From a virus (lineage: Duplodnaviria > Heunggongvirae > Uroviricota > Caudoviricetes), in the IMG/VR virus record IMGVR_UViG_2563366942_000019: a stretch of 18,919 nt of DNA, one strand, 5' to 3'. A model generated the notes under the pieces. That model was not told the origin of the DNA and ran no database searches. It saw only the letters and a program-made list of their open reading frames with translations. Shown piece by piece: positions 1,286-18,919 of the stretch (positions within the stretch are counted from its first letter, which is position 1; the number at the start of each line of letters is the position of its first letter). The position numbers were made by a program, and so were the translations under genes.

Positions 1286-1737
1286 TGCTGGTATTGCCAA
1301 CTGCTGACTAAAGCGTACAAGTGATTTGGAGAATAGCGCCAGCTTTCCTTCAGTTGCAGAAATTCAGCACAAAATTCACTGCAAAACAGGCGATCGCGCT
1401 GTTCTTTATTACCGATAATAATTCCTAATGCTCCGCGCCAGTCATATTTTTTGCCATCATGTTTACGGAAAAAAGTTTCCACATCCTGAAGGCTGGCCTG
1501 GAGCGGCAGCATATCCCACTTATCCGCTGGCAATGGCATTATTTTTCCGCGTACACCGCGATCGCGCAGTGATGCGGAGTAACAAAGGTAACTCTTTTCA
1601 CCATGCTTAATGGCTAATTCACAGTGGGAATAATGACCACGTGTGATTTTACGGGTAAGCCAGTCAGCCAGTCGGGCAATACCACGGTGCTCTGTTCGGC
1701 CCTTATAACAAGCGAGCCAGACAGTGGTTTTACTCAT
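1282..1737 (-). CDS. Hypothetical protein, last gene of the tail operon; weak resemblance to permuted papain-like (YaeF/YiiX, NlpC/P60-superfamily) hydrolases
   Basis: 151 aa ORF whose ATG overlaps the stop of the fibre chaperone gene (ATGA at 1734-1737). Contains His-containing motif GHYSHCELAIKHG and, C-terminal to it, CSEFCAEF, reminiscent of the His-then-Cys order and CSE motif of permuted NlpC/P60 enzymes. Assignment is from memory of motifs only. Confidence 0.45.
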   Translation of the reverse strand: MSKTTVWLACYKGRTEHRGIARLADWLTRKITRGHYSHCELAIKHGEKSYLCYSASLRDRGVRGKIMPLPADKWDMLPLQASLQDVETFFRKHDGKKYDWRGALGIIIGNKEQRDRLFCSEFCAEFLQLKESWRYSPNHLYALVSSWQYQQ

Positions 1738-2441
1738 GGTTGCCAGCCTGTTGAATAATCGTAGTCGAGCACCGCCTGAATATCGTCCAGTGCTTCCACC
1801 GCCGCGATATGGTGCTGGGCGTTTGCGAACAAGCGCATATCGTGATCCATGGTGACCGATTCAAACTGGGCAGCGATTTCGTTGGTTAACTCAATCAGAC
1901 CATTATTTTTAGTTTTCCACATTAACCCTGGCGGAATTTTTTTCTCCGCTCCCATTTTTGTGAGTGAAAGCTGTTGGATACGGCTATTTGTATCACTGTG
2001 GAAGTGATGGTTGTTGATGATGATGTAATCGGTTGTGATGGCATCGCGTTGATTTTTGATTGCAGAGTATTTCGCCTCTTTAGCATCGGTTATAGATGGT
2101 TGCCATTTTTCACCATCCCAACGTTCAAAAGAACCTGTCGGGGAAATGACTGTTACATTTTCAGGTAATTGGCCCAATTCTTGAATAATAAGCTGGCTAC
2201 CATCAACTTTGTTATAAACAGTTTGGCCTCGATGATCTTCAATAAGTCTCCATGTTTCATTCTCCCACACTGGAGTAAAACCAGGAACCTTTTCGGGAGG
2301 TGAAATTAATGTGCAATAATTTGGCAAGCCTGTATTAGGTGCAATGTATGCATCAGACTCACCGATATATTCTTGGGAGTCTTGTGAAAAATTATATACA
2401 GTTAGTATTTGAGCTTCATCGGAAAAGGTAAAAGTATTCAT
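1734..2441 (-). CDS. Tail fibre assembly chaperone (Tfa-like)
   Basis: 235 aa ORF immediately downstream of the tail fibre gene and coupled to it by an ATGA overlap (2438-2441). N-terminal region has Tfa-like features (aromatic then Gly/Pro-rich, ...[11 protein letters not shown]...). Position matches Mu U / P2 G. Confidence 0.6.
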
Positions 2442-4078: not shown

Positions 4079-4080
4079 TA

Positions 4081-4812
4081 TTACTCCGGATATACAGACA
4101 TAATTTCGGTGCTCCAGTATCCTGTGCCGACCTTCATCGGTTGGGATTGTGTTAGTCGATCGGGTTGATAAGGTAGTAGTTGAATATATTCCTCCACACA
4201 ATAACCTGTCGCTAAAAATATTCCAGATGACTGGCTGAGGCTTTCTGCAACAGGAGGCAATACTGTAATGACTTCCCCTCCTTGCATGGCACTGCCAATA
4301 ACTGGTATTGGGCTTCGATTAATAAGCCAAATAACAATGCTTTCCAGCTTTGATCGGACATTTTTATATTCATGAATTAATGTGATAAGTGCATTGAATT
4401 CATCTTCATTTAATCCTTTTTCCTCTAGTGTAATATCAACCTTAAAAAAGTAAGCCTTTCCCCCATATTCAAACCATTCTGAAATAGTTCCTGGTAGCGA
4501 AAGTATTTCCAGTACCCGCCGTACCGCCCAAATCGTTCCTTTATATTTATGCAGCTCAATGGCTTGCTTAATTAACTCGCGCTTCTCCCGCTCATCGGTG
4601 GTAAATAACCAACCTTCCAGCCCCTGAACGTGAAATTGTTCTGCAAGGGCTGGTAATGCCGAAGCATCAACCAGGTCGACCAGATAAACCATCAACGCCG
4701 TCAGATCGAGTTGGGCAAAACGCTCGGCGGCGATGTTTGCCAGAATCGAAAAACGCTCATCGCTGGCAAGCGGCGGCGGTGGCAGCAATTTATCCATCGC
4801 TGACTCCGGCAA
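4081..4812 (-). CDS. Baseplate protein, P2 gpI / Mu gp48-like
   Basis: 243 aa; N-terminal [24 protein letters not shown] matches the LLPP..S...R signature of gpI-family tail proteins. Lies between the gpJ-like and fibre genes as in Mu/P2. Start may instead be at Met6; either way it overlaps the gpJ-like stop. Confidence 0.75.
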
Positions 4813-5905
4813 TCGTGACGTCTATTGCGGTGCATTCCGCCCACTCATGCGCCTGCAAAATACGTTTTGTAGGCATATTCAGCGCAACGTCATAGACGCC
4901 ATCGACCTGTAACACTTTGATTATCTGGTTTGGTACAATGTCCTGCCCCAGATGTTTCTGCCGCTGTTGCGTCCAGAGGCTAATCGCTTTACGCGCCGCA
5001 GCCAGCGTTGTCTCCTGATCGGCGGTGGTAAACAGCGTTAGCTGCGCACGGATCTCATACGGCACTCGAAGAGCGCATTTCGCACTCACTTTGTCGGTCA
5101 GCGGTCGTTTTTTCTCCTTGCTGACTTCTTGTTCAATCTGCGCCAGCAACTCCGTGCCGGGTAGACCATTCAGGGTTAGCGGGTAGATCTCCACGCAGCC
5201 TTCTGGCAATCCCTCGTCCGGCCCCAGTACTGCAACGTCAATAATCGACTGGCTAACAGAAAGCGTATGAAAGCGGTATGCGCCATAGCTGCCCGCATTA
5301 CTAAAGCTTTCTGGTGCCAGTTGGATACGCTGGCGCAATGCGTCATCGCTCTCTTCACCGCAGCCGCCCGTTGACGCAGTCAGGTTGGTTACGTTGATGT
5401 CATAATGACCAATCCTGTCGACCAGTGCGCTAATTTGTGCAGGCTGCCAGCCGTTGCCCTGTTCACCTGCTGCGAGGCTGGTGGCAGGAACGGCGATATG
5501 CAAACTCCTGGCCGGAAGCAGAACATCTTCATCGGTGGCGAACATCACGCTATCAGAGGCACTGGCCCGCGTCCCCTGGGGAATCAGGATATTGCTGGTA
5601 TACGCACTGACGACCGAAAACTGCAACGTCGTTTTTGCCGGTTGTGCAGGCAAACGGTGAACGCCCACCAGCTCCCCTAAATAATCCAGCATTGGCGCGC
5701 GGGAATACGCGACCAGGTTCTGTTTCGCCGCTTCCTGAATGGCGATGCGTACAAGGTTTTCACGATAGGCAAACAGGTCGATGAGCAACCGCTCAGCCTG
5801 TGCCGGATAGAGTTTTTTACCGCTGGCATCTTCATATTGCGCAATCATCTCACTGGTAATTTGCGCAGGATCGCGGTCAATAAAATTGGGTTCGGCTATC
5901 GCCAT
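4790..5905 (-). CDS. Baseplate wedge protein, P2 gpJ / Mu gp47 / T4 gp6-like
   Basis: 371 aa; size, position downstream of the gpW-like gene and overlap with neighbours are typical of baseplate J proteins. Confidence 0.75.
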   Translation of the reverse strand: MAIAEPNFIDRDPAQITSEMIAQYEDASGKKLYPAQAERLLIDLFAYRENLVRIAIQEAAKQNLVAYSRAPMLDYLGELVGVHRLPAQPAKTTLQFSVVSAYTSNILIPQGTRASASDSVMFATDEDVLLPARSLHIAVPATSLAAGEQGNGWQPAQISALVDRIGHYDINVTNLTASTGGCGEESDDALRQRIQLAPESFSNAGSYGAYRFHTLSVSQSIIDVAVLGPDEGLPEGCVEIYPLTLNGLPGTELLAQIEQEVSKEKKRPLTDKVSAKCALRVPYEIRAQLTLFTTADQETTLAAARKAISLWTQQRQKHLGQDIVPNQIIKVLQVDGVYDVALNMPTKRILQAHEWAECTAIDVTIAGVSDG

Positions 5906-6255
5906 AACACCTCCGTTGAGTTGATAACGCCGTCAGCGGCGCGCCATTGCACACGTAACGTCAGATGTTCACCGTCGATTACTGGTGTCACCTTCAGCAA
6001 CCGACAGCGCGGTTCCCACTGGCGGATGGCTTCCACCGACTCCCGTACCACATGCGGGATTGCCCGCTCGATGGGGTAATCGATGTAGTGCCACAAGTTG
6101 CTGCCAAACAGCGGTCTGTGAGGATCACTGCCGCGCGGTGTGCGCAGAATGATGTGTATCGCCTGGTGAATATCATCCAGCCCGCAGACGTATTCTTCAG
6201 GCCGCTGCAAGGCCGGTTGCCAGTGCAGCGTTGAGGGGCGTGTTTTTGTTTTCAT
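5896..6255 (-). CDS. Baseplate protein, P2 gpW / Mu gp46 / T4 gp25-like
   Basis: 119 aa; small gp25/gpW-sized protein immediately upstream of the gpJ-like gene with a 10-nt overlap. Confidence 0.7.
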   Translation of the reverse strand: MKTKTRPSTLHWQPALQRPEEYVCGLDDIHQAIHIILRTPRGSDPHRPLFGSNLWHYIDYPIERAIPHVVRESVEAIRQWEPRCRLLKVTPVIDGEHLTLRVQWRAADGVINSTEVLWR

Positions 6256-6316
6256 GAGGGTATTTTCGCCCTGAACGGGCTGTGGAGATATTAAAGCGAT
6301 TTAGAAAACTGATTGA

Positions 6317-6348
6317 TTAAAAAGAGAAAACCCGCCATCAGGCGGGTT
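6317..6348 (-). terminator. Rho-independent terminator-like hairpin between the spike (V-like) and W-like genes
   Basis: Minus-strand RNA would read aacccgcc-ugau-ggcggguu followed by UUCUCUUUUUAAUC, starting 6 nt after the V-like stop (6356-6354). It sits in a 98-nt gap inside an otherwise tightly packed gene string. Confidence 0.45.
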
Positions 6349-6353
6349 AAAAG

Positions 6354-7055
6354 TCAGTGTGAATGGTGGTTGGAGTTGCCACCGCTGTCCTGCAATGCGC
6401 CGCTGGCCTGAACGTTGCCGATCACGTTGACATTGCCGGTTATCGTGGCTGCGTTACCGATGCCTCCACTTCCTGCCATCCCGCCAAGCCAGGTGAGTTT
6501 TTTCATTACCGTGACGTTGCCAGTAAAGGTGCTCATGGGCGCATCTACCGTCACTGCTGCTGCTTTAACCTCGACCTTAGTGGCGTCGATGCTGACATCG
6601 GTCGCTTTAACATCGACGGTATCGGAAGTCACGGTGACCTGTTGGGCTTTAATCTCAACGTTGGGCGATGTCAGGCAGGTACCGTTGATAACCTCAATCA
6701 CGATTTTCTCGATACCGCCGTTGATCGTCAGCTGGTGCGTGCTGCGGTCATATTCAAACGCTGCGCCATCAGAAAACTGGACGTAACGTTTGTCGCGCGA
6801 GGCTACAGGCGCGGTGTCAACCGTAGAATAAACTGCGCCCAGCACCACGCCATCTTCACCGTTATTGTCCAGCAGAACTTCCACTTGCTCGCCCATATCC
6901 GGTAGCCAGTAGTCTTTATTGTCCTGGGAATTGTGTTGAAGTACCGCAAGCCAGTTGCTCTTCAGATTGTCACACTCTGGAAGCGTGACTCGCACCCGAA
7001 CGCTGGTTTCGTCAATATCGCTGATAATCCCCGTTTGACGGGTTACTCCTTTCAT
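6354..7055 (-). CDS. Baseplate central spike, P2 gpV / Mu gp45-like
   Basis: 233 aa; N-terminal OB-like region followed by a Val/Thr-rich beta-repeat stretch (VTVTSDTVDVKATDVSIDATKVEVKAAAVTVDA), a Gly-rich segment and a terminal ...NSNHHSH, consistent with a spike and its apex. Confidence 0.75.
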   Translation of the reverse strand: MKGVTRQTGIISDIDETSVRVRVTLPECDNLKSNWLAVLQHNSQDNKDYWLPDMGEQVEVLLDNNGEDGVVLGAVYSTVDTAPVASRDKRYVQFSDGAAFEYDRSTHQLTINGGIEKIVIEVINGTCLTSPNVEIKAQQVTVTSDTVDVKATDVSIDATKVEVKAAAVTVDAPMSTFTGNVTVMKKLTWLGGMAGSGGIGNAATITGNVNVIGNVQASGALQDSGGNSNHHSH

Positions 7056-7064
7056 ATTTCCTCC

Positions 7065-8105
7065 TTACTGGCTGGTCGCTGGCCCGCGTGACACGTCGAT
7101 TTCAGTGGTATAGCCGCTGCGCACAAAACTGTGAGTAGATTTATCAATCAGCCACTGACCGGAAATCACGCCAAAATCGGTCAGTTCAATTTTATTGCCC
7201 GCCGTCAGTTCCGGGCAGCCCATCATTGTGAGCGTTCCGGTTTGCTGATATTCGTTGTGGCTGTCGAGTGCAGCGTTGGCCTTTGCCTGTGCTGCGCCAA
7301 CGTCCGTCGCCCGACTGTTCAGTTTTAGCGTGTCGGCACTGGTGCCGACTCCACGGGCAAACGGTTTTTGCTGGCTGTCGTGGGTGTAGATAACCAGTTC
7401 TTTTTTCTTACTATTTTGATGCTGTACGGTGGCGTTTTTGTAGATACGGTTAATGGTATCTTTGAAGGTGAAATGCGAAACGTCTTTGCGGTCGATCTTT
7501 TTCACAGGTGCCAGGCAGCGCAGCGTGGGTAAATGTGAAAAAATCAGCTCTTTCGTCGTCACTTTTACGGCATAACCATATTCACTGGCCAGACGTTTGA
7601 GAAATCCAACATCGGTTTCGCCGTACTGTGTCACCCGGTCAATTGTCAGAGGCTCGATTTTGCCCACCAGCTTTAGGCCGTGAGTTTGTGCGATACGGCT
7701 GGCGATAGCCGAAAGCGTCGTTTCTTCAAAGCCCTGGCTGTTACGGGTGCGCAGCGCCTGATTGACGGAAGTGGCGATGCCATCAATATTTACCGTAGAA
7801 GGTGGCGCTGAAATATCAATTTTATCAATAATATACTGACCACAATCGAGCAGCTTTTCTCCCTGATACCCCATATGCAGCGCCAGCGTATCGCCTTTGC
7901 CGGGATACCACTCTTTTATCCAGCGTCCATCTGTGTCATCCAGTGTAATTGCGATGGTATCCGACTCGTTTTTGATGCTGTCGTGGTAACTGATGCTGGT
8001 GACATAGGGTGTGATGTCATAAGTGATATCTTTATGCCCATACCAGAGGGTAAAAATGGGCGTGAGTGTGGCAAAGACGCCACCAGTTACGCTTATCTCA
8101 GCCAT
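7065..8105 (-). CDS. Baseplate hub protein, P2 gpD / Mu gp44 / T4 gp27-like
   Basis: 346 aa; position between the X-like and V-like genes and size match the gpD/late-control-D family. Confidence 0.75.
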   Translation of the reverse strand: MAEISVTGGVFATLTPIFTLWYGHKDITYDITPYVTSISYHDSIKNESDTIAITLDDTDGRWIKEWYPGKGDTLALHMGYQGEKLLDCGQYIIDKIDISAPPSTVNIDGIATSVNQALRTRNSQGFEETTLSAIASRIAQTHGLKLVGKIEPLTIDRVTQYGETDVGFLKRLASEYGYAVKVTTKELIFSHLPTLRCLAPVKKIDRKDVSHFTFKDTINRIYKNATVQHQNSKKKELVIYTHDSQQKPFARGVGTSADTLKLNSRATDVGAAQAKANAALDSHNEYQQTGTLTMMGCPELTAGNKIELTDFGVISGQWLIDKSTHSFVRSGYTTEIDVSRGPATSQ

Positions 8106-8302
8106 GGTGGGATCTCCGATAAGGTTTTATTAACGGAAATGACCGGAATAATGAGCTGAATACCGGAAGGCAGTACCGGGTAAATGGCTACATGTGGATT
8201 GGCGGCGATTATGCGTTCATAAGCCAGTGCATCACCGTAGTAATGCCATGCCAGGTTATCCCAGCGTTCGCCATCGGTGGTGATATGTTCAAGGTATCGC
8301 AT
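8093..8302 (-). CDS. Tail protein X-like (LysM-like fold)
   Basis: 69 aa; GERWDNLAWHYYGDALAYERIIAANPHVAIYPVLPSGIQLIIP fits the gpX pattern G.tld.i..ryYG......e.vl.aNP.l......LP.G..v.lP. Confidence 0.7.
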   Translation of the reverse strand: MRYLEHITTDGERWDNLAWHYYGDALAYERIIAANPHVAIYPVLPSGIQLIIPVISVNKTLSEIPPWLR

Positions 8303-9255
8303 TACCAGCTCCTGGTAATGGTTACGGCAGCAAGCTGGCTCACTGCGGGAGTGGTTTGTTGTACCGTTGTACGTGCCTGCTCAACCAACGACGTGGCTTT
8401 ATCGAACGTCGCTTCGGCGATGTCGCTGGTAATGTCGTCGAAAAGCGCCTGAGCATGGTCAACCAGCGTACTGGCGTCATTGGCGCAGTCCCGGATACCT
8501 GGCATGTTACCCAGTAAAGCTTTAATCTGCGCCGACAACGCTTTTGGTAGGCCTGCCAGCGTTTGCAGATCCATTGGCTGTTTAAACAGGGTTTCGATGG
8601 CGTCGATTGTCTTTTTCAATGACGTAATTATCTTTTCACACTTTTCTTTTAACGCTTTGGCCTCTTTAATCATTGCTTTCACTTTTGCCACCGTTTTTTT
8701 AATATCTTCAATGGATTGTGTCAGTTCATCCAGCATCTCTTTGGCCTTACGCATACCTTCTTCAATGGCGTTTAATATCTGATCAAACCAGGACTCCACC
8801 TTGTCGGGAAAATCGCTCGCCTTTTCCTCGATGTTGGGCTCCTGGGTGGTAATCGCCGGAGGTAAAAGTGGATTTTTAGGATCGCCGGTGTACTCCTGGA
8901 GCGACATCGTTCCGTTTTGGGCAATCACATTGCCCCAGGGATCGGTGTGCTGGTGGGTGGCGGTTAGCTCCGTAATCACAAACCAGCCGCGATAATCGCC
9001 ATTGCCAAATACCAGTGCCATCGCCTTGTGAGCAAGCATGGCTTCACGCAGTCGGTTCAGCTCTGTTGTGGGCTGGCAAAACTGGCTGTGCAGGGAAAAT
9101 TCCAGCGCCAGCATATCCAGCTTATCGCCAATAAACTGCACGCCGGGTTTGCCTTCTATACGGGCATGTGTGGCGTAATCCACGCCCATTGTGCTTTTAA
9201 AGCCGTCCCAGAATGTGACAACCTTAAATTCAATCTCTCCTAAAACGGCATACAT
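8302..9255 (-). CDS. Tail protein with gpU-like N-terminal domain and Lys/Glu-rich coiled-coil C-terminal extension (Mu gp43/N-like)
   Basis: 317 aa; N-terminus MYAVLGEIEFKVV... resembles P2 gpU. The C-terminal ~180 aa are heptad-like and K/E/A-rich (EEGMRKAKEMLDELTQSIEDIKKTVAKVKAMIKEAKALKEKCEKIITSLKK...). ATGA overlap with the tape-measure stop at 9255. Confidence 0.55.
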   Translation of the reverse strand: MYAVLGEIEFKVVTFWDGFKSTMGVDYATHARIEGKPGVQFIGDKLDMLALEFSLHSQFCQPTTELNRLREAMLAHKAMALVFGNGDYRGWFVITELTATHQHTDPWGNVIAQNGTMSLQEYTGDPKNPLLPPAITTQEPNIEEKASDFPDKVESWFDQILNAIEEGMRKAKEMLDELTQSIEDIKKTVAKVKAMIKEAKALKEKCEKIITSLKKTIDAIETLFKQPMDLQTLAGLPKALSAQIKALLGNMPGIRDCANDASTLVDHAQALFDDITSDIAEATFDKATSLVEQARTTVQQTTPAVSQLAAVTITRSW

Positions 9256-11630
9256 CAGGCATACCCCCGGCGCTGTTGTTGCGCCATTACGTCGTTAATC
9301 ATTCTTTCCAGTTCGCGTTTACTCATCGTCAACACGTTCTGAATCTCTTTAGTGGTGTTTTGTCCGTTTCCCTGCACGGTAATCTGTGGCGAAAAATTTA
9401 CCTGGACTTTTCCTGAGGAACGGGAGGGTAGCGTCGCCGGTTTGGTTACGGATTTACCAGGTAAAGAGGCAGATACGGGTTTGGCGGCTGTATTTTTTGC
9501 CGCTGGCGCCGATGACGGCGTAGCCGTTTTGCCGGATGGCGCGAGTTGTTTGCCCACCGGCGGCGTTAAAATCGCACCGGCAACGCCTGGAACAACGGTC
9601 GCGGGGGAGACGGATGCGGTATTAGTCGTGCTTGTAATAGCTGTAGCCGATCCTTCTGTACTAATACCCATCGTGGTTTTTAGCCAGTCTGGGATGGCGT
9701 TTTTTACCTGATCAATAATGCCTTTCAGAGCGGGGAAGGCATTCATTATGCCGTCAACCAGACTGCCCAGAAGATTGCTGCCGAACTCGCTAAAACTTGC
9801 AGGCATCTCGACACCAAACCAATTCATCACACTGGAAAAGGCGCTATAGAACAACTCCAGCGGTGACCAGTCGAGAATCAACCGACAAATTCCTGCAATG
9901 CCGCCGTCAAAGGCCGTGGTGATACGTTGCCAGATGGTCGAAAAGAACCTGGAGATAGGCTCCCAGTTGCGACAAATCAGATAAGCAGCGCCCGCAATCG
10001 CAGTGATGACCAGACCAATGGGATTCATCAATAAAACCCTACCCAACCAGAAGACGGTCTGACCTACCTGTTTCAGTGCGCCAATCAGGCCACGACCAAG
10101 CAGTTGCATTAGCCATTTTGCGCTGCCACCCAATGACTTAACCGCTGATAGCATCTTACTTGCCCCGCCTGTGAGCGCCAGACTTGCCTTGACTTTCAGG
10201 AAGATATCGACCAGACGAATAAACGGCGAGGTGATGAGGTTCGCGCCCAGCTTTAAAACATTCAGCGCGCCGTTAAACAGCCAAACCGCCCCGACGATTT
10301 TCGCAATGTTTTGCACCAGCGCCGGATGTTCGCGTAGCCAGGCGCTGAACTGGCGAATAACCGGCGTAAGGCTTTGTGCCAGCTCGCCAATCGCCGGCAT
10401 AAGCTGCAAACCAATGCTGAGCCATAAATCATTTAATGCCAGCTGTAACGCTTTAGTCTGTTCAATGGGCGAGGCCATTTGCGCAGAAAAGTCAGCGTTA
10501 ATCAGATTCTTGCTGGTGGCTTGCATGGCAGAGGCTTTTAACTGGCGATATTCCTCCATATTCGCCAGCATAGGTGCCAGGAATTCCACCGTTTGCGCAT
10601 CGCCGAACATTTCGCCCAGATTAAATTGCGTTACCATCGATTGCAGCGCATTGCTGCGAGCAGATAAATCTTCAATCTGCATAGTGCGTTTGAAGGTGTC
10701 GAGGATCGCCGGATTCATCTTCTCAAGCTGCATTTGTACGATATGAGTCATGGCTTCGCTAACACCCATACCGTTTTGCTGATGTTCAAGCAGAGAGCCT
10801 TGCAGATCGACGCCCTGGCTGGCGAACCAGCTATCGGTTTTTTTCGAAAAGGTGGTTTGCAGAAAGTGGTCGAAATTCTCCGCCGCCGCACTGGCGCTGG
10901 CCCCGTTTTTCATGGCGATCTGCATGGTGGCGCTCAGTTCAGCCATACCTTCCAGACCCTGAGCGCCGGTTTTACCTGCAAATTTCTCTATCCACTGCGT
11001 TTGTTCAGCAATGGCAGGCCCACCGCTTTTGCTAATGCCGTACATCATGTTTTGCGCGGCGTGGAAATTTTCCAGGGCAATATTCAGTCGATCATGGGTT
11101 GCGAGCGCGGCATTCGCCCATGTTTCAGCACTTTCGCGCGTGGCGGTGGCAGCTTTGGCGATCTCCGGCATATAACGGTTGAGATCCTGTATCGACGACA
11201 AATTGCCTTCGATCAGCGTTTGGGCTGCGTTCTGTAAGGTGGTCTGCTGCTGGTTAAAATCCATGCTCCAGTCGCGCAGATTAAGGCTGAGCGTCTCGCG
11301 GGTTGTAGCATTCATCCCACCTTTGGTCGCCATATTGACCATGTTGTCCTGAAACTCATACGGCAACTTCCAGTCGGGGGCTTCAACATTGAATACTTTG
11401 CTAAATTGCCCGGCAAATGTTTGGGTTTTCTCCATCAGATTAGCGCGGCTGCGGCTATTTTCCTCCAGGCGGAGAGCGGAATCGGCAAGCTGCTGCGTTA
11501 GTTTGATAACTGTCGCCTGCTGAGTAGAGAGAGTTAACAATGTTCTGGCGTTGAGTGAGCCGTAACGGGCTATTGCCTGCGTCAACGTCTCATTACGCGC
11601 CTGAAGCTGGGTAATAATATCGTTGGCCAA
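9255..11630 (-). CDS. Tail tape measure protein
   Basis: 791 aa; largest ORF; helical Ala/Gln/Leu-rich body with hydrophobic segments and a Ser/Thr/Pro/Ala-rich low-complexity C-terminus. Located after the tube and chaperone genes as in all contractile tails. Confidence 0.85.
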   Translation of the reverse strand: MANDIITQLQARNETLTQAIARYGSLNARTLLTLSTQQATVIKLTQQLADSALRLEENSRSRANLMEKTQTFAGQFSKVFNVEAPDWKLPYEFQDNMVNMATKGGMNATTRETLSLNLRDWSMDFNQQQTTLQNAAQTLIEGNLSSIQDLNRYMPEIAKAATATRESAETWANAALATHDRLNIALENFHAAQNMMYGISKSGGPAIAEQTQWIEKFAGKTGAQGLEGMAELSATMQIAMKNGASASAAAENFDHFLQTTFSKKTDSWFASQGVDLQGSLLEHQQNGMGVSEAMTHIVQMQLEKMNPAILDTFKRTMQIEDLSARSNALQSMVTQFNLGEMFGDAQTVEFLAPMLANMEEYRQLKASAMQATSKNLINADFSAQMASPIEQTKALQLALNDLWLSIGLQLMPAIGELAQSLTPVIRQFSAWLREHPALVQNIAKIVGAVWLFNGALNVLKLGANLITSPFIRLVDIFLKVKASLALTGGASKMLSAVKSLGGSAKWLMQLLGRGLIGALKQVGQTVFWLGRVLLMNPIGLVITAIAGAAYLICRNWEPISRFFSTIWQRITTAFDGGIAGICRLILDWSPLELFYSAFSSVMNWFGVEMPASFSEFGSNLLGSLVDGIMNAFPALKGIIDQVKNAIPDWLKTTMGISTEGSATAITSTTNTASVSPATVVPGVAGAILTPPVGKQLAPSGKTATPSSAPAAKNTAAKPVSASLPGKSVTKPATLPSRSSGKVQVNFSPQITVQGNGQNTTKEIQNVLTMSKRELERMINDVMAQQQRRGYA

Positions 11631-11819
11631 AATTGTTTCTCTTTAAATATTGATAATGGCCCGCTGGTTATTTTTCTAAAAAAAGGGGCAGGGAAGAAAT
11701 AAACCTGACGGGCTTGGGAAACTCGCAGACATCAGGTCTGCGAGTCATATTCGATTTTTATTTGGGCGCTGGCTTCATCCAGCCAGTTGCTAAAGTCATC
11801 GACGGTAAGGGCGTCTATC

Positions 11820-12137
11820 TCACTGGGTGGAAAGCGAAACCATCTCGCCAGTAACGCCATCGCTTGCCATAACAGTGGCGGATTCTGTAGCCACGCTAAG
11901 CATGGATTGAAATCGTTTCTGCAATGCCTGGTAATCCAGCAAATCCATTTCAGCTAAATCTTCTGGCACCAGTCCGGTCATTGCCGCCATTAGCGGTTCA
12001 TCCCACTCTTCAGGTTTTTCGCTGATCCGGCGCGCGTTGCGCATATCTTTTACTTTCAGGCGACGTAATTGCAGAGTGTTAATTACGTCTCCCGCCGCTG
12101 AAGTAAACGGGAACTGTAAGATATAATGTTCTTTCAT
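11820..12137 (-). CDS. Tail assembly chaperone (P2 gpE / Mu gp41-like)
   Basis: 105 aa acidic protein between the tube and tape-measure genes, the conserved slot for the tape-measure chaperone. The -1 frame stays open for about 33 codons past its stop. Confidence 0.55.
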   Translation of the reverse strand: MKEHYILQFPFTSAAGDVINTLQLRRLKVKDMRNARRISEKPEEWDEPLMAAMTGLVPEDLAEMDLLDYQALQKRFQSMLSVATESATVMASDGVTGEMVSLSTQ

Positions 12138-12162
12138 TTTGTGTCCTTATTTATTTTGCAAA

Positions 12163-12182
12163 GTTCGGGGCCGTAGCCCCGA
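12163..12182 (-). other. Stem-loop directly after the tail tube gene stop (possible attenuator or RNA-stabilising hairpin)
   Basis: ttcggggc-cgta-gccccgaa perfect 8-bp GC-rich stem between the tube stop (12188) and chaperone start (12137). No clear U-tract on the minus strand. Confidence 0.4.
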
Positions 12183-12187
12183 ATAAC

Positions 12188-12712
12188 TTAGCCACCGATG
12201 TTATTGCGATAGGTACTTAATTGATCCACACCATTAACCCGGAAAATATTGGCCATATAATCAAGTTCAAGCAGCGTTTCACCATCAACTACTTGTTTAA
12301 TATAAGTGCAACCAAAGGCGCTGCTGAATTCCGGGTTTTCATTCTGTTTAAATGTGCCCAGTGGATTCTTTTTAAACATCACGGTTAAATGTGTCACTAG
12401 CGCTAATTGATTCGCTTTCCCCTGGGAGTTATAGCAATCAATACTGGAGCGGCACTGTAATGCAACCGCCTGCCACGGGTTTGCCGTTTTACGCATTACG
12501 TCCTGATAGAAGGAGTTCCATTTAATTTCGCCCTCCAGTTTATCGAAACCCGCCGGGAGTTCGATTTTACCCACCATGCCCAGTGCTTTATGCTCCTGCA
12601 TAATTAAACTGACATCCGGCAATTTAATTTCGGTTGCACGACCTAAAAGGTTATTACCATCGAGATAAATATTGGCGTTGGTAATACGGTTAATTTGAAT
12701 TTTTCCAGCCAT
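12188..12712 (-). CDS. Tail tube protein (P2 FII / Mu M-like)
   Basis: 174 aa; size and position immediately downstream of the sheath gene (1-nt overlap at 12712). Confidence 0.8.
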   Translation of the reverse strand: MAGKIQINRITNANIYLDGNNLLGRATEIKLPDVSLIMQEHKALGMVGKIELPAGFDKLEGEIKWNSFYQDVMRKTANPWQAVALQCRSSIDCYNSQGKANQLALVTHLTVMFKKNPLGTFKQNENPEFSSAFGCTYIKQVVDGETLLELDYMANIFRVNGVDQLSTYRNNIGG

Positions 12713-14142
12713 TAGCTATTGCTCTCCAGAGAGACTAAATATTCAGAAGTAATTTCAGTTTCAAACGTCAGACGTTCCAGCGGCGGCGGCGGGGTGAATT
12801 TATAGCTCAGCAATAAATGCCCAGCGCTGAGTTCAGTCGGTGAATTTCGCGCCGGATCGTACCAGCATTCAAAGCCAAGCAGTGCGCCGTCGGCAATCAG
12901 CTTACGGCCCCAGGTATTTACCGATTCGGTCAGGGCATCAATCAGCGCCTGATTAATCGGCATATCAATATACTGCTGACTGAAATAACGGATTGACTCA
13001 TTAATTACATCGCCTGTCCGGCGGACGTTTTCAAAGTTACGCATATGGGTCACGGTAGGCCACGCTGCAGTGCGGTTGCCCCACAAGCGCAGACCAGAGC
13101 CGTAACTATTGAAAATAGTGGTAATGCCGTTTTCGTTTAGCTGATTCACTTCGCTTTGTGGATCATCAATCATTGCGGAAAGCGAACGTTCAATACCGGT
13201 AATACCCTGAATTTCTTGGTTTGAGTTGCTCCACCAGAAACCTTTTTCGAGGTCTACTTTGGCACGTAGCCCGGCAGCGCGCGAAGAGAGCGGTTCGAGA
13301 ACTTCTTGGTTAGTGATGCCATCGTAAACTTTGACGTGTGGGTAACATAAACGCGCACGATCAGAGCTGGTGTTGAAGTTGATAGCCCCTTGCGAACCGC
13401 GTCCTGCCAATACCTGCTGGAATGTCGTCCCAATCGGGGCATCAATGTAGGTAATCGCACCAAGTTTTTCCGCTTGTGCAATCAGCTCTGTAGTTACTGA
13501 TTTTTGCGTACAGAACACGGGAGCAAGCAGGATTTTGGCGTAGAAACCATACAGGTTATAGGTGTCCTGTAGCAGTTCCATCCCCGTGCGATCGCCTGCG
13601 GTATTAACGGCACCGATAATATCGGCTGCGGTGACCTTTGTAGGGTCGCACCAGGAATAATAGGCGCAAACTTTCGCACCAGGAGGAATGTCGGCTCCTG
13701 TACGGGTAATTATGCCTGTTTGTTCATCTACGCTAAATGCTGCGGTGTTATAGGTTGATGAATTTGATGAAGAGGGCTTTAGAACCACGTTACGCACATT
13801 GCGGTGAGTGAGTTTCGCCTGGTTGTTAGCATCAAAAGTGATACTTTCATTGCTGATGTTGGAGCCATGTTTTGCCGGATCCAGCACGTTAATCACCACC
13901 ACCGTACCGGCACCGTGGTCATAAATCGCCTTCAGTGCCTGTGGGATCGTAAAGTTAGTCTGAGTCGAACCAAACTGCGCAGCATCGCTTTCAGAAAGGC
14001 ATAATGTTGGTTTATTTACCGGACCACAGGGGGCCGTACCGATTAAAGCGATGACGGCGGATTTTACCGCTTTAACCGGACGCGGGCCGGTTTCAATTTC
14101 AATGGTTTCTACACCGTGCAGATAATTAGCTGCCATGTACAA
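12712..14142 (-). CDS. Contractile tail sheath protein (P2 FI / Mu L-like)
   Basis: 476 aa; N-terminus ...NYLHGVETIEIETGPRPV resembles the conserved sheath N-terminus; size and position are typical. Confidence 0.85.
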   Translation of the reverse strand: MYMAANYLHGVETIEIETGPRPVKAVKSAVIALIGTAPCGPVNKPTLCLSESDAAQFGSTQTNFTIPQALKAIYDHGAGTVVVINVLDPAKHGSNISNESITFDANNQAKLTHRNVRNVVLKPSSSNSSTYNTAAFSVDEQTGIITRTGADIPPGAKVCAYYSWCDPTKVTAADIIGAVNTAGDRTGMELLQDTYNLYGFYAKILLAPVFCTQKSVTTELIAQAEKLGAITYIDAPIGTTFQQVLAGRGSQGAINFNTSSDRARLCYPHVKVYDGITNQEVLEPLSSRAAGLRAKVDLEKGFWWSNSNQEIQGITGIERSLSAMIDDPQSEVNQLNENGITTIFNSYGSGLRLWGNRTAAWPTVTHMRNFENVRRTGDVINESIRYFSQQYIDMPINQALIDALTESVNTWGRKLIADGALLGFECWYDPARNSPTELSAGHLLLSYKFTPPPPLERLTFETEITSEYLVSLESNS

Positions 14143-14323
14143 TTTCCTCTCCGTTATTTTGTTCTTCCTGAGTGATGACAGGAGTCAGATGATTGCGGGC
14201 AATCATGGTCATGACCCACTCGTTGTCTTCTGGCAGATCAATTTCACTGTTCGGCCACAATAAGATTTCTTGTCCGTCGGCAAGGGTGACGCCGCTTGCC
14301 GGGCCGTTGTAGATGTATTTCAT
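14126..14323 (-). CDS. Small tail-associated protein (Mu gp37-like)
   Basis: 65 aa ORF overlapping the sheath start by 17 nt and the upstream gene by 4 nt, in the position of Mu gp37 just upstream of the sheath gene. Confidence 0.45.
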   Translation of the reverse strand: MKYIYNGPASGVTLADGQEILLWPNSEIDLPEDNEWVMTMIARNHLTPVITQEEQNNGEEIVHGS

Positions 14324-14775
14324 TCAGTTTCCTCGTAATTAACTTCAGTAAGCAGGGTAAGGTCCGTGCTTTCCCGTTTCGCGATAAACAGCGAGCTGGT
14401 CGCCATTTCCAGGATGTAGCGGCAGAAACCGCCGCTCTCACCTGTATTAATTTCTTTTTCAAGCCAAAGCAGACGATCGCAATCAGGAAGCTGAAGGCCA
14501 CCCAATGCGCTGCGTATGTGATCAAGTGCGTTTAACGCGTCACAATTTTTGCCAACAATAACGGTGGCGGTTAAGCGAAGTATTTGCTGTTGCACGATGG
14601 CATCACTGCTTTCGGGCGTGGTAAAGACAGAACCGCTATAATTAACAATCACCGCAACTTGTTGTGTCTGTGGAATATATTTCTGGGCATCCGTAGATGA
14701 AATAAATACGTCCATTTCGGGGTTGTGCTCACGTAATCTTGTCACGACACAATTCATTACAGATAAAATTTCCAT
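14320..14775 (-). CDS. Tail completion/terminator-type protein (Mu gp36-like)
   Basis: 151 aa, first gene after the intergenic region and terminator, in the position of Mu gp36 upstream of gp37 and the sheath gene. Confidence 0.45.
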   Translation of the reverse strand: MEILSVMNCVVTRLREHNPEMDVFISSTDAQKYIPQTQQVAVIVNYSGSVFTTPESSDAIVQQQILRLTATVIVGKNCDALNALDHIRSALGGLQLPDCDRLLWLEKEINTGESGGFCRYILEMATSSLFIAKRESTDLTLLTEVNYEETE

Positions 14776-14882
14776 ATAGGCTGTACCTTAATTACCGCTC
14801 ACTTCGTTATCGTTGAGATATATTCTGAAGCAGTGAAGGTGAAGAATCTTTTAATGTGATTTAGAGAAAAAATTGAATGGTT
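14776..14882 (-). promoter_or_regulatory. Putative promoter region for the tail operon (possibly activator-dependent)
   Basis: 107-nt AT-rich gap between the terminator and the first tail gene. No convincing sigma70 -35/-10 pair was found by eye, as would be expected for a Mor/C-dependent late promoter. Confidence 0.3.
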
Positions 14883-14920
14883 AAAAAAATCCCCACCCTT
14901 ACATAAGGGTGGGGATTTTT
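14883..14920 (-). terminator. Rho-independent (bidirectional) terminator after the lysis cassette
   Basis: ccccaccct-tacata-agggtgggg 9-bp stem flanked by aaaaaaa (14883-14889) and attttt (14915-14920). On the minus strand the stem is followed by a U7 tract. Abuts the stop of the 14920-15234 gene. Confidence 0.7.
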
Positions 14921-15234
14921 CAATAACTGCCACGTTGTAACAGCTCGATTTTGCTATATAAGGCATCCAGCTTCGCTTCTAATACTGCTTGCCCACGAAG
15001 ATAATCTTCTCTGCGGACATAATGCAGCGGAAGCTCGGCACGAAATTCGAGAAATTCTCTTTCCAGTTTCGACCAACTTGTTTCTGATTCCCTGCGGGCA
15101 TTTTCCAGAGACTCAAAACGCTCATTAAGTCGTTTTTCAATTTGTGCTAACAGCAGTTTTCCGGCAGCAAACATTAATCCAACGAAGGAAAGCATAAGGG
15201 AGATCACTTCCCAAAAATCGATACTGAGTTTCAT
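14920..15234 (-). CDS. Lysis-cassette membrane protein: N-terminal transmembrane helix plus coiled-coil (i-spanin-like, or Mu gp25 releasin-like)
   Basis: 104 aa; hydrophobic segment WEVISLMLSFVGLMFAAGKLLLA followed by a charged heptad region (EKRLNERFESLENARRESETSWSKLEREFLEFRAEL). Good RBS (agagggg) upstream; lies 12 nt after the transglycosylase stop. Confidence 0.45.
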   Translation of the reverse strand: MKLSIDFWEVISLMLSFVGLMFAAGKLLLAQIEKRLNERFESLENARRESETSWSKLEREFLEFRAELPLHYVRREDYLRGQAVLEAKLDALYSKIELLQRGSY

Positions 15235-15246
15235 CGGCCCCTCTGA

Positions 15247-15852
15247 TTAATGAAGACAGCTTGCCTGTCCCCAGAGTAAATAGCGGGCGGCATGTTGATA
15301 GAGGATCATCTTTGGATAGCGACGATTTTCTCGCCAGTTCGTGGCGCTGCGCCCGGCGTTGACTTGCTCAACATGACCAAACCAGCTAGTGGCATCTAAC
15401 CCTTTGGATGCAGCCAGTTTTTTATCCCGGTTAACCCACCCCTGACCGCCGTTATAGGCGCTTAGGGTAAACGCCATACGCTGACAATCATTTTTCGCAG
15501 AGATGTTTTTCCACAAATGCTGGTCATATTGCACCAGCGCGCGAATCGCCCAGGTTGGGTTATACGGTTTGTTTTCACGCAATTGTGGATACAACTGGCT
15601 TATCCATGTCGCTGTAGCAGGCATAAATTGCGCCATACCTTGTGCGCCAACGGGGGAACGTACCATTGGCTGCCAGGCGGACTCCTGGTGTAATTGCCCG
15701 GCAAAGTCGGCCACTGGAGCATTCAGCCCCCAGACTTCTCGAGCTGTACGAATTAGTTCGTTTCGCCATGCCAGAGAGGCTCGCGGCGGTTCAGAGGCGT
15801 TAAGCGGGAAAAGAACGAAAATAATCATAGACGCGATATATTTCAGCCACAT
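15247..15852 (-). CDS. Lytic transglycosylase (SLT domain) with N-terminal signal/SAR-like sequence; putative endolysin
   Basis: Start chosen at the internal ATG (15852-15850) giving MWLKYIASMIIFVLFPLNA. SLT family-1 motifs are present: HQESAW, GAQGMAQFMP, AYNGGQGW. The track ORF starting at 15930 would overlap the upstream gene by 76 nt. Confidence 0.75.
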   Translation of the reverse strand: MWLKYIASMIIFVLFPLNASEPPRASLAWRNELIRTAREVWGLNAPVADFAGQLHQESAWQPMVRSPVGAQGMAQFMPATATWISQLYPQLRENKPYNPTWAIRALVQYDQHLWKNISAKNDCQRMAFTLSAYNGGQGWVNRDKKLAASKGLDATSWFGHVEQVNAGRSATNWRENRRYPKMILYQHAARYLLWGQASCLH

Positions 15853-15854
15853 CA

Positions 15855-16142
15855 CTATAGCCCTAAGGCGACGGAAAGACAGACGGCGGCAACGATGATG
15901 GCGCGGCGAATCATTGCCGCCGCGCAGCAACGAGGTTCCTTCCAGGGGCTAAAAGAGTCAGGCCGTGCCCAGGGGAACAAACTGCGATCGAGCCAGTATC
16001 CCAGCACCGCGGAAAGCGAAACCAGGCTTAGTTTATAAATGACGACCGGGATCTGTGCTGAAGAGGTCCAGCCGATCACGACAAACAGCGCGACGGAAGC
16101 GACCAGCCAACCGGAAAGCCGGGGAAGAGTGACTTTTTTCAT
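15855..16142 (-). CDS. Small membrane protein with 2-3 hydrophobic segments (putative holin or pinholin)
   Basis: 95 aa; hydrophobic stretches LSGWLVASVALFVVIGW, LSLVSLSAVLGYWL and AIIVAAVCLSVALGL. Strong RBS (caggagataccgtATG). Directly precedes the transglycosylase gene. Confidence 0.45.
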   Translation of the reverse strand: MKKVTLPRLSGWLVASVALFVVIGWTSSAQIPVVIYKLSLVSLSAVLGYWLDRSLFPWARPDSFSPWKEPRCCAAAMIRRAIIVAAVCLSVALGL

Positions 16143-16437: not shown

Positions 16438-16480
16438 ATACTGTATGTGCATGGGTCTTCCCCGATCATGGTGGGAAGAC

Positions 16481-17701
16481 TCAGTACGCCATATTCAGTT
16501 TCCCATAGTGGAACATAACTCCCAGTTTAAAGCGTTCCCGGTTTCGGTATCCCCTGGCCTTTATCCTCAGCAGTCTGATCTTGCTGTTCAGCGCCTCCGC
16601 ATTTCCATTCGAGACGCGATGACGCATTGCATTCAGTATTCCGTATAACCGTTTTTTAATGGTTTTCGCTGCGTTTTTCATCATCGGCACATCACATTCA
16701 GACGCCAGCGATATCCACTGCAACCAGTCATTCCTGCGTTCTGTGCTCCAGGGGCGATCCCAGATATTTTTTGCCAGCTCTTTCAGTGTCCAGCACTGGC
16801 TTGTCTGTTGCATCTGTTCCCGCAACCACATCAGCTTTTCCTGCCGGGACTCAGTCATCCATTTGTCGCTGTACTGCCACAGGAAGCGGGTACCTTTGGC
16901 CTGACGACGACTTTCAACAGGGAGGTGCGGATGTTCATTCTGGCGGGTTTTATCAACCACTTCGCCCAGTTGCTTCGCCACATGGAAGCGATCGAAGGCG
17001 ATTTTCTCGACCGCATTGGGTAAATGGATACGCGCTGCTCTTATATAGCCCGCATTCATGTCCATCGACAGTGTTTTGATGGCCAACAACTGACTGTCAG
17101 TAAGCGAACGGAGATAGCTGGCAAGACTCTCTGTGCCACGATCATCGGTTAATGCCAGTGCCCGCCCGTCGCGATCAGATACCACGGTTATATACCTATG
17201 CCCTTTTTTAAAGGCGACTTCGTCTACATTCATATGACGCACTGATAAAGGCTTTTTAATCCGCGACAGGCCTCGCTTAACCGCGCGGGTCATGATGCCG
17301 TCAACGGCATTCCAGCTAAGTTTAAGTTGTTTTCTGACCGCATCAACGGTGCTGATTTTAAGCCATGAGAGCACGAACGATTCGAACAGCAGAGTGTACC
17401 GACTGCCGGAACCTGCCCACGGTACAGGCAGAGTCTGGCAGCCATGCTCCGGGCACATAACGCGGGGAACATCGGCTTCTACTAATGTCATGAACTGGCA
17501 GGTATCAAGGTGGCGCCATTTACGATGTCGGTGATCGTGAACAGAACAGGATTTCCTGCAGGTCGGACAGGTTAACTGAGTATTTTCAGCAATTCCGACT
17601 GTAACAGTAACGGAACCTGCATTTTCATCGAGGGTAAGGGATTTAACCTGCCATGGTGCAGTCAGGTTAAGGATATGGGCATAGAGGGATTTTTCGTCCA
17701 T
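16481..17701 (-). CDS. ISL3-family transposase
   Basis: 406 aa; N-terminal zinc-finger-like CPTCRKSC...CPEHGC, then the DDE region with the ISL3-type motif NVDEVAFKKGHRYITVVSD. Confidence 0.85.
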   Translation of the reverse strand: MDEKSLYAHILNLTAPWQVKSLTLDENAGSVTVTVGIAENTQLTCPTCRKSCSVHDHRHRKWRHLDTCQFMTLVEADVPRVMCPEHGCQTLPVPWAGSGSRYTLLFESFVLSWLKISTVDAVRKQLKLSWNAVDGIMTRAVKRGLSRIKKPLSVRHMNVDEVAFKKGHRYITVVSDRDGRALALTDDRGTESLASYLRSLTDSQLLAIKTLSMDMNAGYIRAARIHLPNAVEKIAFDRFHVAKQLGEVVDKTRQNEHPHLPVESRRQAKGTRFLWQYSDKWMTESRQEKLMWLREQMQQTSQCWTLKELAKNIWDRPWSTERRNDWLQWISLASECDVPMMKNAAKTIKKRLYGILNAMRHRVSNGNAEALNSKIRLLRIKARGYRNRERFKLGVMFHYGKLNMAY

Positions 17702-17719
17702 ATAATTTCATTCTGAAGC

Positions 17720-18238
17720 TTACTTTAAACTGATATTATTATTTTTTGCCCACTTTCTTAATCTTCCATTAGCGTTGGCGTAAGGCGAAGATGTGTTAAA
17801 TGAGATCATTCTCCCCATCGTCCATTTTGTGTACCATGGTCTTCCATACAAAATATCATCGGTACGATCATTAATAAGGTTCACAATCTCATTTTTTACA
17901 GTATGAAGTTCAGCTACTAACAACTCATAACTTAACTCACTGTAATCTGAGTAAAATTTTTGAGCAAGAAGGCCAAGCTGATTCCATTTATAGCCAGTTT
18001 CCGGAAAATCGACAGGCAGACCTTTAGCATCAGAAGCGATCCACTTTACAACAAGAGCATTCCATCCAAGCAGATACGAAACGAGATCACGAACACTCAT
18101 CTCCGTTCCTTTGGCGTGTCCGTCCATTGATTTATCTGAAGTAATTTCTGGTGGGATTGTGTTGAGGTAACTAATTAATTTACTAAAATTTTTATCAATA
18201 GCTAAAAGCAGTTCAGCTTTTGTTTGCGGCACACTCAT
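17720..18238 (-). CDS. ClbS/DfsB-family (DUF1706) four-helix-bundle protein; passenger gene within the IS
   Basis: 172 aa; motifs DGHAKGTEMSVRDLVSYLLGW, FPETGYKWNQLG and RPWYTKWTMGRMISFNTSSPY recalled as characteristic of the ClbS/DfsB family. Good RBS (gaggga). Located inside the IS inverted repeats, upstream of and co-oriented with the transposase. Confidence 0.6.
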   Translation of the reverse strand: MSVPQTKAELLLAIDKNFSKLISYLNTIPPEITSDKSMDGHAKGTEMSVRDLVSYLLGWNALVVKWIASDAKGLPVDFPETGYKWNQLGLLAQKFYSDYSELSYELLVAELHTVKNEIVNLINDRTDDILYGRPWYTKWTMGRMISFNTSSPYANANGRLRKWAKNNNISLK

Positions 18239-18352
18239 AAGAATTCCCTCTCATGTAAAAAGAGACACCATAAAGGTACTGTGTGGTGTTTGAAAATCAC
18301 TCAATTATGTACCACCCACCACAACAGGGGAAGACCCATGTGCATACAGTAT

Positions 18353-18571
18353 CGTGTAAAATGATACTCCTGTTGATAAGAAACATAACGCAAACAATAT
18401 ATTTATTTAGTGAATTTATGCGTTCATTAATATTAATAATTTATATTTTTGTTAATTGTTTATTTGTTTGTTGAATGTATTGAGTAGCAGTAATGACAAC
18501 TGCTTAGCGTATATCCGTGGTTTTACACGCATCGGGTCTTATTCAGGATGCAAGATATATGGAGATGAAAA
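18353..18571 (+). promoter_or_regulatory. AT-rich upstream region of the Mor-family gene
   Basis: About 220 nt, strongly AT-rich with repeated ttaat/tttat tracts (cattaatattaataatttatatttttgttaattgtttatttg); GGAG RBS 7 nt before the ATG at 18572. Confidence 0.3.
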
Positions 18572-18919
18572 ATGATACGAAAATCAAAAGAGATGGCCCG
18601 GACACCGGAGATCATTAACGACCTGGCTTTTCATGCATCGCAAGTTCTGATTGAAAGCATCAATCTCGACAGTTCATCGGCAGAAAATGTGGGCTTTGCC
18701 ATTGCCGACCGAATGATGCGTAACTGGGGCGGACAAAGCATTTATTTCCCTAAGGGGATCTCCGGACGAGCATCGGAGCGTGACTACCAAATCTATAGCG
18801 AGTGCGATGGGCGCAACTACGCCGAATTAGCGAAGAAATATAATCTGACGCTGCAATGGATTTATAAGATTGTGAAACGCGTACATGCGGAAAAGCAACA
18901 GCGCCGCAGTAATTCGTAA
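18572..18919 (+). CDS. Mor/C-family transcriptional activator (Mu middle/late operon regulator-like)
   Basis: 115 aa complete ORF (stop at 18917-18919). C-terminal ...ERDYQIYSECDGRNYAELAKKYNLTLQWIYKIVKR is the helix-turn-helix region characteristic of the Mor/C activator family. Confidence 0.75.
   Translation: MIRKSKEMARTPEIINDLAFHASQVLIESINLDSSSAENVGFAIADRMMRNWGGQSIYFPKGISGRASERDYQIYSECDGRNYAELAKKYNLTLQWIYKIVKRVHAEKQQRRSNS

Follow-up and report, generated by a model that had tools for sequence, protein, structure and literature searches.

An ISEc53 copy with a ClbS-like passenger gene lies in a predicted LexA operator beside a tail gene cluster and points to a CTGT-N8-ACAG target preference in the ISEc53/ISKox3 group

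Several mobile elements with DDE transposases are known to insert at particular targets. IS1397 and ISKpn1 target the palindromes of repetitive extragenic palindromic (REP) sequences and bacterial interspersed mosaic elements (BIMEs), IS30 targets a 24-bp symmetric hot-spot consensus, and TnGBS and ISLgar5 insert 15-17 bp upstream of sigma-A promoters. In each case the target is a defined, recurrent and mostly intergenic motif, which gives such elements many safe, conserved landing sites. Here we analyzed ISEc53, an insertion sequence (IS) of the ISL3 family, as found in the viral record IMGVR_UViG_2563366942_000019 of IMG/VR (18,919 nucleotides [nt]; this whole stretch of DNA is called the window below). 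ISEc53 and its group likewise have a DDE transposase and a defined motif, but unlike the elements above their target is the operator of the global stress repressor LexA, and each insertion would rewire or inactivate the SOS regulation of the gene beside it.

Neither the element nor its passenger gene is new. A clbS-like gene beside a single ISL3 transposase gene has been described as a transposon that is present on plasmids and chromosomes in the Escherichia coli lineages ST131, ST69 and ST95 (Maklin et al., bioRxiv 10.1101/2025.11.17.686825). The published ISEc53, the fimB::ISL3-like insertion and this "clbS-like transposon" have the same 1,885 bp, the same genes and the same ends as the element in the window, from which they differ in one passenger residue (H112). 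The features of the element and of its insertion site are as follows, with the strand given where it applies and the basis of each assignment in parentheses.

16453-18337, minus strand (both genes): ISEc53, ISL3-family IS, 1,885 bp (near identity to RefSeq-annotated copies)
16453-16475: IRR, the terminal inverted repeat at the 3' end of the transposase gene, GGGTCTTCCCCGATCATGGTGGG (comparison of ends with other copies)
18315-18337: IRL, the terminal inverted repeat on the passenger side, reverse complement GGGTCTTCCCCTGTTGTGGTGGG (comparison of ends with other copies)
16445-16452: left copy of the target site duplication (TSD), 8 bp, ATGTGCAT (direct reading; single in the empty site)
18338-18345: right copy of the TSD, 8 bp, ATGTGCAT (direct reading)
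16481-17701, minus strand: ISL3 transposase, 406 amino acids (Pfam)
17720-18238, minus strand: passenger of the ClbS/DfsB family (DUF1706), 172 amino acids (Pfam; GAGGG 8-9 nt 5' of the ATG)
16439-16444: left half of the predicted split LexA box, TACTGT (reconstructed site fits CTGT-N8-ACAG)
18346-18351: right half of the predicted split LexA box, ACAGTA (reconstructed site; Salmonella orthologue)
16440-16445, minus strand: -10-like hexamer TACAGT of a leftward promoter-like site (seen in the intact locus L001)
18355-18360, minus strand: -35-like hexamer TTTACA of the same promoter-like site (seen in the intact locus L001)

Over its 1,885 bp the element was 99.9% identical to E. coli copies annotated in RefSeq as "ISL3-like element ISEc53 family", and the name ISEc53 as used here rests on that annotation of the matching copies, in which the passenger is labeled "ClbS/DfsB family four-helix bundle protein". 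Its termini (GGGTCTTCCCC) form inverted repeats of 23 nt with 19 of 23 positions matching, and the ends were identical across all the copies fetched with both ends. The transposase contains the domains DDE_Tnp_ISL3 (PF01610, E value of 1e-58), HTH_Tnp_ISL3 and Zn_ribbon_ISL3 (PF13542, E value of 3e-12; PF14690, E value of 3e-10). These domains, the recurring terminal repeats and a TSD of 8 bp, which is the duplication size throughout the ISEc53/ISKox3 group, are those of the ISL3 family, and the feature is a copy of the already catalogued ISEc53. The element was present at ≥80% coverage in 657 of 5,426 complete E. coli genomes and additionally in 203 plasmids, and the fimB insertion of many clinical isolates (E. 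coli ST131) is the same element. A scan for the IS end in one genome per species gave a single locus; ISEc53 hardly occurs outside E. coli and enterobacterial plasmids.

A preliminary description of the window, made from its letters alone, had taken two 38-nt repeat arms (16438-16475 and 18315-18352) as the ends of the element. The arms are present and are 84% complementary, but when 7 other copies were fetched with their flanks only the inner 1,885 bp was common to them, placing the true ends 15 nt further in on each side. The outer 15 nt of each arm comprise the 8-bp TSD and the target halves aTACTGT and ACAGTAt, which pair with each other because the target is itself palindromic. The same description had recognized a discrete ISL3-family IS with two co-oriented genes, and here it was borne out: Pfam identified a DUF1706 protein and an ISL3 transposase, both encoded on the minus strand, and the inner 23-nt repeat recurs at other copies. 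The TSD, which it had left to be identified, is ATGTGCAT, present on both sides of the element and once in the empty site.

Removal of the IS and of one TSD copy from the window gives ...AATAATACTGTATGTGCATACAGTATCGTG..., and this junction is uninterrupted in 186 E. coli genomes, for which reason the locus is explained as a simple insertion into contiguous DNA and not as the rearrangement breakpoint that had been considered. In strain A10 the holin gene and mor stand on either side of the intact site, and lysC and pgi adjoin mor. Both the reconstructed and the naturally intact site read TACTGTATGTGCATACAGTA and contain a 20-bp operator, TACTGT-ATGTGCAT-ACAGTA, with a perfect CTGT-N8-ACAG core (N8 being the 8-bp spacer). 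The site conforms to the consensus of the gammaproteobacterial LexA box, TACTG(TA)5CAGTA, with its TA flanks and AT-rich spacer. As estimated from shuffles of the Salmonella locus L138, a comparable stretch of 5 kb would contain about 0.03 full boxes by chance alone. Judged by its sequence, the insertion is placed exactly at the center of a LexA operator. The preliminary description had correctly located it in the regulatory region between mor and the lysis/tail operon, but the placement within that region is not arbitrary.

The orthologous cluster of Salmonella (the equivalents of STM4212-STM4219, beside lysC) has AACTGTATATATATACAGTA at the same position. There the box is a perfect CTGTATATATATACAG in intergenic DNA that has otherwise diverged, and GTGTAAAATGA directly past the box is also kept. 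A promoter search of the intact E. coli locus gave one site, TTTACA-16-TACAGT, on the minus strand and directed toward the holin/lysis/tail operon, with its -10-like hexamer inside the left half of the box. Since the box is perfect in Salmonella amid diverged intergenic DNA and overlaps this promoter-like site, it is predicted to be functional as an operator. After the split no full LexA box is left in the window.

Exactly this insertion was found in 8 of the 5,426 E. coli genomes, including MS 21-1 (100% identical), CE10 and IAI39. The same box between mor and the holin gene holds an insertion in AR_0013, CE10 and IAI39-type genomes, with 99.3% identity to the junction in the window. In AR_0013 (L129) both TSD copies read ATGTACAT, and in the window both read ATGTGCAT. 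A single-nucleotide polymorphism shared by the two TSD copies indicates either separate insertions into two box alleles or subsequent recombination or gene conversion.

Targets of the group were then collected from metagenome contigs scanned with a pattern that specified the IS end only, which yielded at least 120 loci. Among the matches listed, CTGT stood exactly at positions -12 to -9 in 73 of the 91 unique 24-nt flanks and at any other offset in no more than one of them, and the flank logo was aaTACTGTATATATAT|IS. At a fixed offset, CTGT would occur by chance in approximately 1 of 256 flanks. A looser pattern for the IS end, together with additional E. coli copies, extended the junction set to 121 unique flanks of ISEc53, ISKox3 and their relatives; among the matches listed, CTGT was exact in 99 of these, had one mismatch in 14 and had two or more in 8. 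Both CTGT and ACAG were present at 22 of 32 distinct complete insertions, and 17 of the 32 had a perfect 8-bp TSD equal to N8. Two sites illustrate the arrangement: in the sbmC operator the sequence is TACTGT|TTTTATAT|ACAGTA, and on F-type plasmids, before a dinI-like/umuD operon, it is TACTGT|ATATACAT|ACAGCA, the TSD in both being the 8 central bases. When copies were aligned to the junction in the window, the mutual resemblance of the flanks carried the BLAST alignments 18-23 nt beyond the IS end. This recurrence of one motif, in one register, at many independent sites is that of a target-specific IS. ISEc53, ISKox3 and the relatives ending in GGGTCTTCCCC choose CTGT-N8-ACAG and duplicate N8, and they therefore accumulate before SOS genes on chromosomes, plasmids and prophages.

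The genes beside the targets agree with this rule. The first outward-reading open reading frame was taken at each of 58 non-redundant junctions. It was of UmuD/HumD type in 13 cases, SbmC in 4, DinB (DNA polymerase IV) in 2 and PolB (DNA polymerase II) in 1; two further frames begin like colicins by eye, without a family match. Annotated E. coli copies of ISEc53 lie at sbmC, dinD, umuDC, a plasmid dinI-like/umuD operon and a prophage, and one lies in a box inside an IS150 remnant, which we take to be the dinS box. ISKox3 precedes an S24 peptidase gene on an IncX3 NDM-5 plasmid. Perfect TSDs were found at the dinD, umuDC, IS150-remnant and prophage sites, at the Mor/holin site of AR_0013 and at the IncX3 site of ISKox3. 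The sbmC box has been entered in both orientations, and one plasmid box has been struck by both ISKox3 and ISEc53. We regard the targets, as predicted from their sequences and neighbors, as real SOS operators. An orientation bias, with the IRR-type end next to the gene at 19 of 26 junctions, was considered and rejected, the pattern used matching the IRL of ISEc53 but not the ISKox3-like one.

Some complete copies have no TSD (L060:4982-6866, L030:70-1954, L022, L024, L026 and L040). These still have box halves on both sides, a CTGT half and an ACAG half that come from different operators; in L060 the left flank is that of the fimB site and the right flank that of the IS150-embedded box. Their flanks suggest recombination or inversion between IS copies residing in different SOS boxes. 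At fimB, the left junction was 3 nt shorter in L002 and L084 than in L060 (L002:281-300, 2186-2205).

ISKox3 (ISL3 family, 1,316 bp, common on IncX3 and IncF plasmids) has the same termini, the same 8-bp TSD and the same CTGT-N8-ACAG target as ISEc53. The transposase regions of the two share 84.5% DNA identity, and the similarity ends at the transposase start codon. ISKox3 has no passenger there, whereas ISEc53 has approximately 570 extra bp holding the ClbS-like gene, in a slot between IRL and the transposase gene. Other relatives have other cargo in this slot: a shikimate-dehydrogenase-like gene in L100 (50-2301), a 299-amino-acid protein without a Pfam match in L073 (6444-8658), possibly an OspG-like kinase region in L106 (567-3274), and approximately 445 extra bp with no clear gene in L038 (7021-8781) and L067. 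These slot variants share their ends and the LexA-box target with ISEc53.

We consider it quite probable, taken as a whole, that the feature is the known ISEc53 with its ClbS-like passenger, brought into a LexA operator by a preference for CTGT-N8-ACAG targets. ISEc53 would have entered by cut-and-paste transposition of the DDE type with an 8-bp staggered cut, the stagger being centered on the 20-bp LexA operator in the regulatory region of a tailocin-like cluster beside lysC. The transposase would read the palindrome directly as a symmetric dimer, and the insertion would abolish LexA control and pull apart the -35 and -10 hexamers of the promoter-like site that reads leftward.

Several observations weigh against this account or parts of it. 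Eight of the 121 flanks had two or more mismatches to CTGT, and the metagenome junctions, although picked by the IS end alone, are those among the matches listed. The ST131-type fimB site (aaaGTGT-ATATATAT-CCAT) has one near-cognate half and no full LexA box; because this insertion lies outside a full box, the target rule is a strong preference and not an absolute one. The leftward promoter-like site matches 9 of 12 consensus positions, and such matches are no commoner here than in shuffles. No strong sigma-70 consensus promoter for the passenger was found within the IS. For the clbS-like transposon, the authors of its description themselves call for experiments (Maklin et al., bioRxiv 10.1101/2025.11.17.686825).

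The target preference could also be borrowed from LexA itself, in that operator-bound LexA would recruit the transposase and insertion would take place between the two LexA monomers. In agreement with this, the flank logo matches the LexA consensus over its full extent, with the TA at its flanks and the AT alternation in its core, and nearly all the identifiable neighbor genes are genuine SOS genes. Targeting through host factors has analogues in Ty3 with TFIIIB and in Tn7-type elements with TnsD. The fimB site, with its one near-cognate half and poor second half, was nevertheless used although it is not expected to hold a LexA dimer, and a symmetric consensus abutting the staggered cut is typical of direct reading by DDE transposases. 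We know of no LexA-interaction motif, which also counts against recruitment. One BLASTP match between the transposase and LexA was obtained (residues 280-334 against residues 2-63 of LexA, its DNA-binding domain; 27% identity over 62 amino acids, E value of 0.008 for this single comparison) with an approximate LexA query, and was set aside as probably noise. Because the consensus lies right against the cut sites and the fimB insertion made use of a poor LexA box, we favor direct reading of the palindrome by the transposase and estimate recruitment by LexA to be correct in perhaps one case of four.

The passenger matched the DUF1706 profile (PF08020) over its full length (E value of 4e-54, residues 1-165 on positions 1-166 of 166). 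It shares 171 of 172 residues with PDB 5COF, which is a solved structure of the same protein; residue 112 is His in the window and Gln in 5COF. The exact variant is WP_016235458.1, which was found on only 2 contigs of the protein collection, and the fetched RefSeq copies carry the variant WP_000115885.1. No LexA box that might regulate the passenger was found within the IS. Alignment to ClbS, the enzyme of colibactin self-resistance encoded in the pks island (PDB 6ANR), a comparison that the preliminary description had proposed as a check, gave 54% identity over the whole length (E value of 2e-55). Tyr55, the one active-site residue compared, is aligned between the two proteins (DLVSYLLGW/NLVSYLIGW), and this residue is critical for the cyclopropane hydrolase activity of ClbS (bioRxiv 10.1101/431098). 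All 10 ClbS-like proteins assayed by Silpe et al. (2022, PMC8907063), with identities of 25-80%, were protective against colibactin. On the strength of this likeness the passenger is predicted to detoxify colibactin as ClbS does. The passenger and ClbS thus have in common their DUF1706 family, sequence and Tyr55, and they differ in that ClbS sits in the pks island and the passenger is carried by an IS outside it, the activity of the latter being predicted from sequence. The proposal of a mobile colibactin-resistance determinant is reasonable on these grounds but not new, as the element and its passenger had been published.

A different DUF1706 role for the passenger, either as a DfsB-like sibling bacteriocin or in protection from a different electrophilic genotoxin, was also considered. 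The family includes DfsB ("sibling bacteriocin", PDB 5CIV), and many of its members come from bacteria without known colibactin exposure. The passenger is, however, far nearer to ClbS than to DfsB, its match to the latter being much weaker (E value of 1e-18), and it retains Tyr55. The protection afforded by 10 of 10 ClbS-like proteins (PMC8907063) and the carriage of the passenger by lineages that compete with pks+ E. coli (bioRxiv 10.1101/2025.11.17.686825) also speak against such a role, and we would give it about one chance in five. One of the protective proteins, that of E. albertii, is WP_000115842, an accession numerically close to WP_000115885; whether it is the same as the passenger was asked of the cluster listing, which did not show it. 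The surroundings of the E. albertii gene are approximately 90% identical to E. coli (PMC8907063), and WP_000115842 may be an ISEc53-type passenger, in which case a nearly identical protein would already have been assayed for function.

Taken as a whole, the preliminary picture of a generic ISL3 element that is bounded by 38-nt repeats, landed by chance, possibly marks a breakpoint and represents a new mobile colibactin resistance is very improbable. The 38-nt repeat is present and the passenger is ClbS-like, as that picture had it, but the inner 23 nt of each arm alone recur at other copies, the flanks are contiguous in the 186 genomes, and the element with its passenger was already catalogued and published. 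Least credible of all is random or AT-biased insertion with later selection enriching the copies in SOS boxes, for, while intergenic operators are tolerant sites and derepression of umuDC-like or sbmC genes could be advantageous, selection cannot set a cut position to the base pair, and the motif keeps one exact register (99 of 121 flanks, among the matches listed, have CTGT at -12 to -9), the TSD is the N8 spacer, a single box has been entered in both orientations, and the boxes stand before unrelated genes on plasmids, prophages and chromosomes.

The remainder of the window contains the genes that the occupied operator would control, together with their neighbors.

18572-18919, plus strand: Mor-family transcription activator gene, intact (Pfam Mor, E value of 7e-38)
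1282-16142, minus strand: tail-only cluster, in order from 16142 to 1282 holin, SLT transglycosylase, membrane protein, Gp37, sheath, tube, tape measure, baseplate, tail fiber and fiber assembly (Pfam)
1-1268: SPFH/Band 7 gene, 3' part, and RlaP gene, complete (RNA repair pathway DNA polymerase beta family)

Among the Pfam assignments in the tail cluster (1282-16142) there were none for head, packaging or replication functions. The cluster is flanked by host genes, RlaP/SPFH on one side, which are presumably host genes bounding it, and lysC beyond mor on the other; lysC follows mor in related genomes (annotation of L001). The cluster was present in approximately 197 of the 5,426 E. coli genomes, and it is conserved at the corresponding locus of Salmonella (STM4212-4219 equivalents, L138). 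The lysis/tail flank, used as a query against the phage collection, had just two matches at 76% identity, one to a Salmonella contig and one to a fragment of 3.6 kb, and no described phage matched. A search with the Salmonella locus tags found no paper that by its title or abstract deals with these tail genes.

R-type tailocins such as the R-pyocins are tail-only, DNA-damage-inducible clusters that include a lysis cassette. With its contractile-tail genes and lysis cassette, its bounding host genes and no assigned head, packaging or replication gene, the cluster looks like an SOS-controlled R-type tailocin. It shares with the R-pyocins a sheath, tube, baseplate, fiber, holin, transglycosylase, activator and predicted DNA-damage operator. 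R-pyocins use PrtR/PrtN, whereas control of this cluster would be through a direct LexA box and a Mor-family activator, and in the window this operator has been destroyed by the IS. The -35-like hexamer (18355-18360) now lies 1.9 kb from the -10-like hexamer (16440-16445), and no terminator-like site was found on the minus strand between the transposase gene and the holin gene. The arrangement suggests that the lysis/tail operon has probably been cut off from SOS induction by the insertion and is either silenced or left to read-through from the transposase gene.

LexA-operator targeting by ISEc53/ISKox3 elements is probably an unreported variant of target-specific transposition. No report of LexA-box targeting by these or any other ISs was found by title and abstract in approximately 8 million open papers and preprints, subscription literature and ISfinder notes lying outside the scope of that search. 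The target rule explains the locations at which these elements are found, namely umuD-like genes on IncF and IncX3 resistance plasmids, sbmC, dinD, umuDC and prophage or tailocin operators. It also predicts the sites at which the clbS-like transposon can land and the SOS genes that would lose LexA control in a given strain; those for error-prone polymerases and for SbmC, a gyrase inhibitor, are examples, as is the tail/lysis operon in the window. A target specificity of approximately 21 bits in a small single-protein DDE system bears on the mechanism of transposition and makes the system a possible tool for site-directed insertion.

From the rule a link can be proposed, and tested, between DNA damage, transposition and a defense gene against a DNA-damaging toxin. 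As a tentative extension, which we hold to be somewhat likelier wrong than right by two to one or so, the LexA operator could serve as the homing signal of the ISEc53/ISKox3 clade with transposition coupled to the SOS response, either because LexA recruits the transposase or because the sites open only on LexA cleavage. If this were true, a DNA-damage signal would license the movement of an element that carries defense against a DNA-damaging toxin. Each hop would free one SOS promoter from LexA, and in one orientation the passenger and the transposase would fall behind that promoter. The ISEc53/ISKox3 elements would then be systematic rewirers of SOS regulons on chromosomes, on resistance plasmids and in prophages and tailocins.

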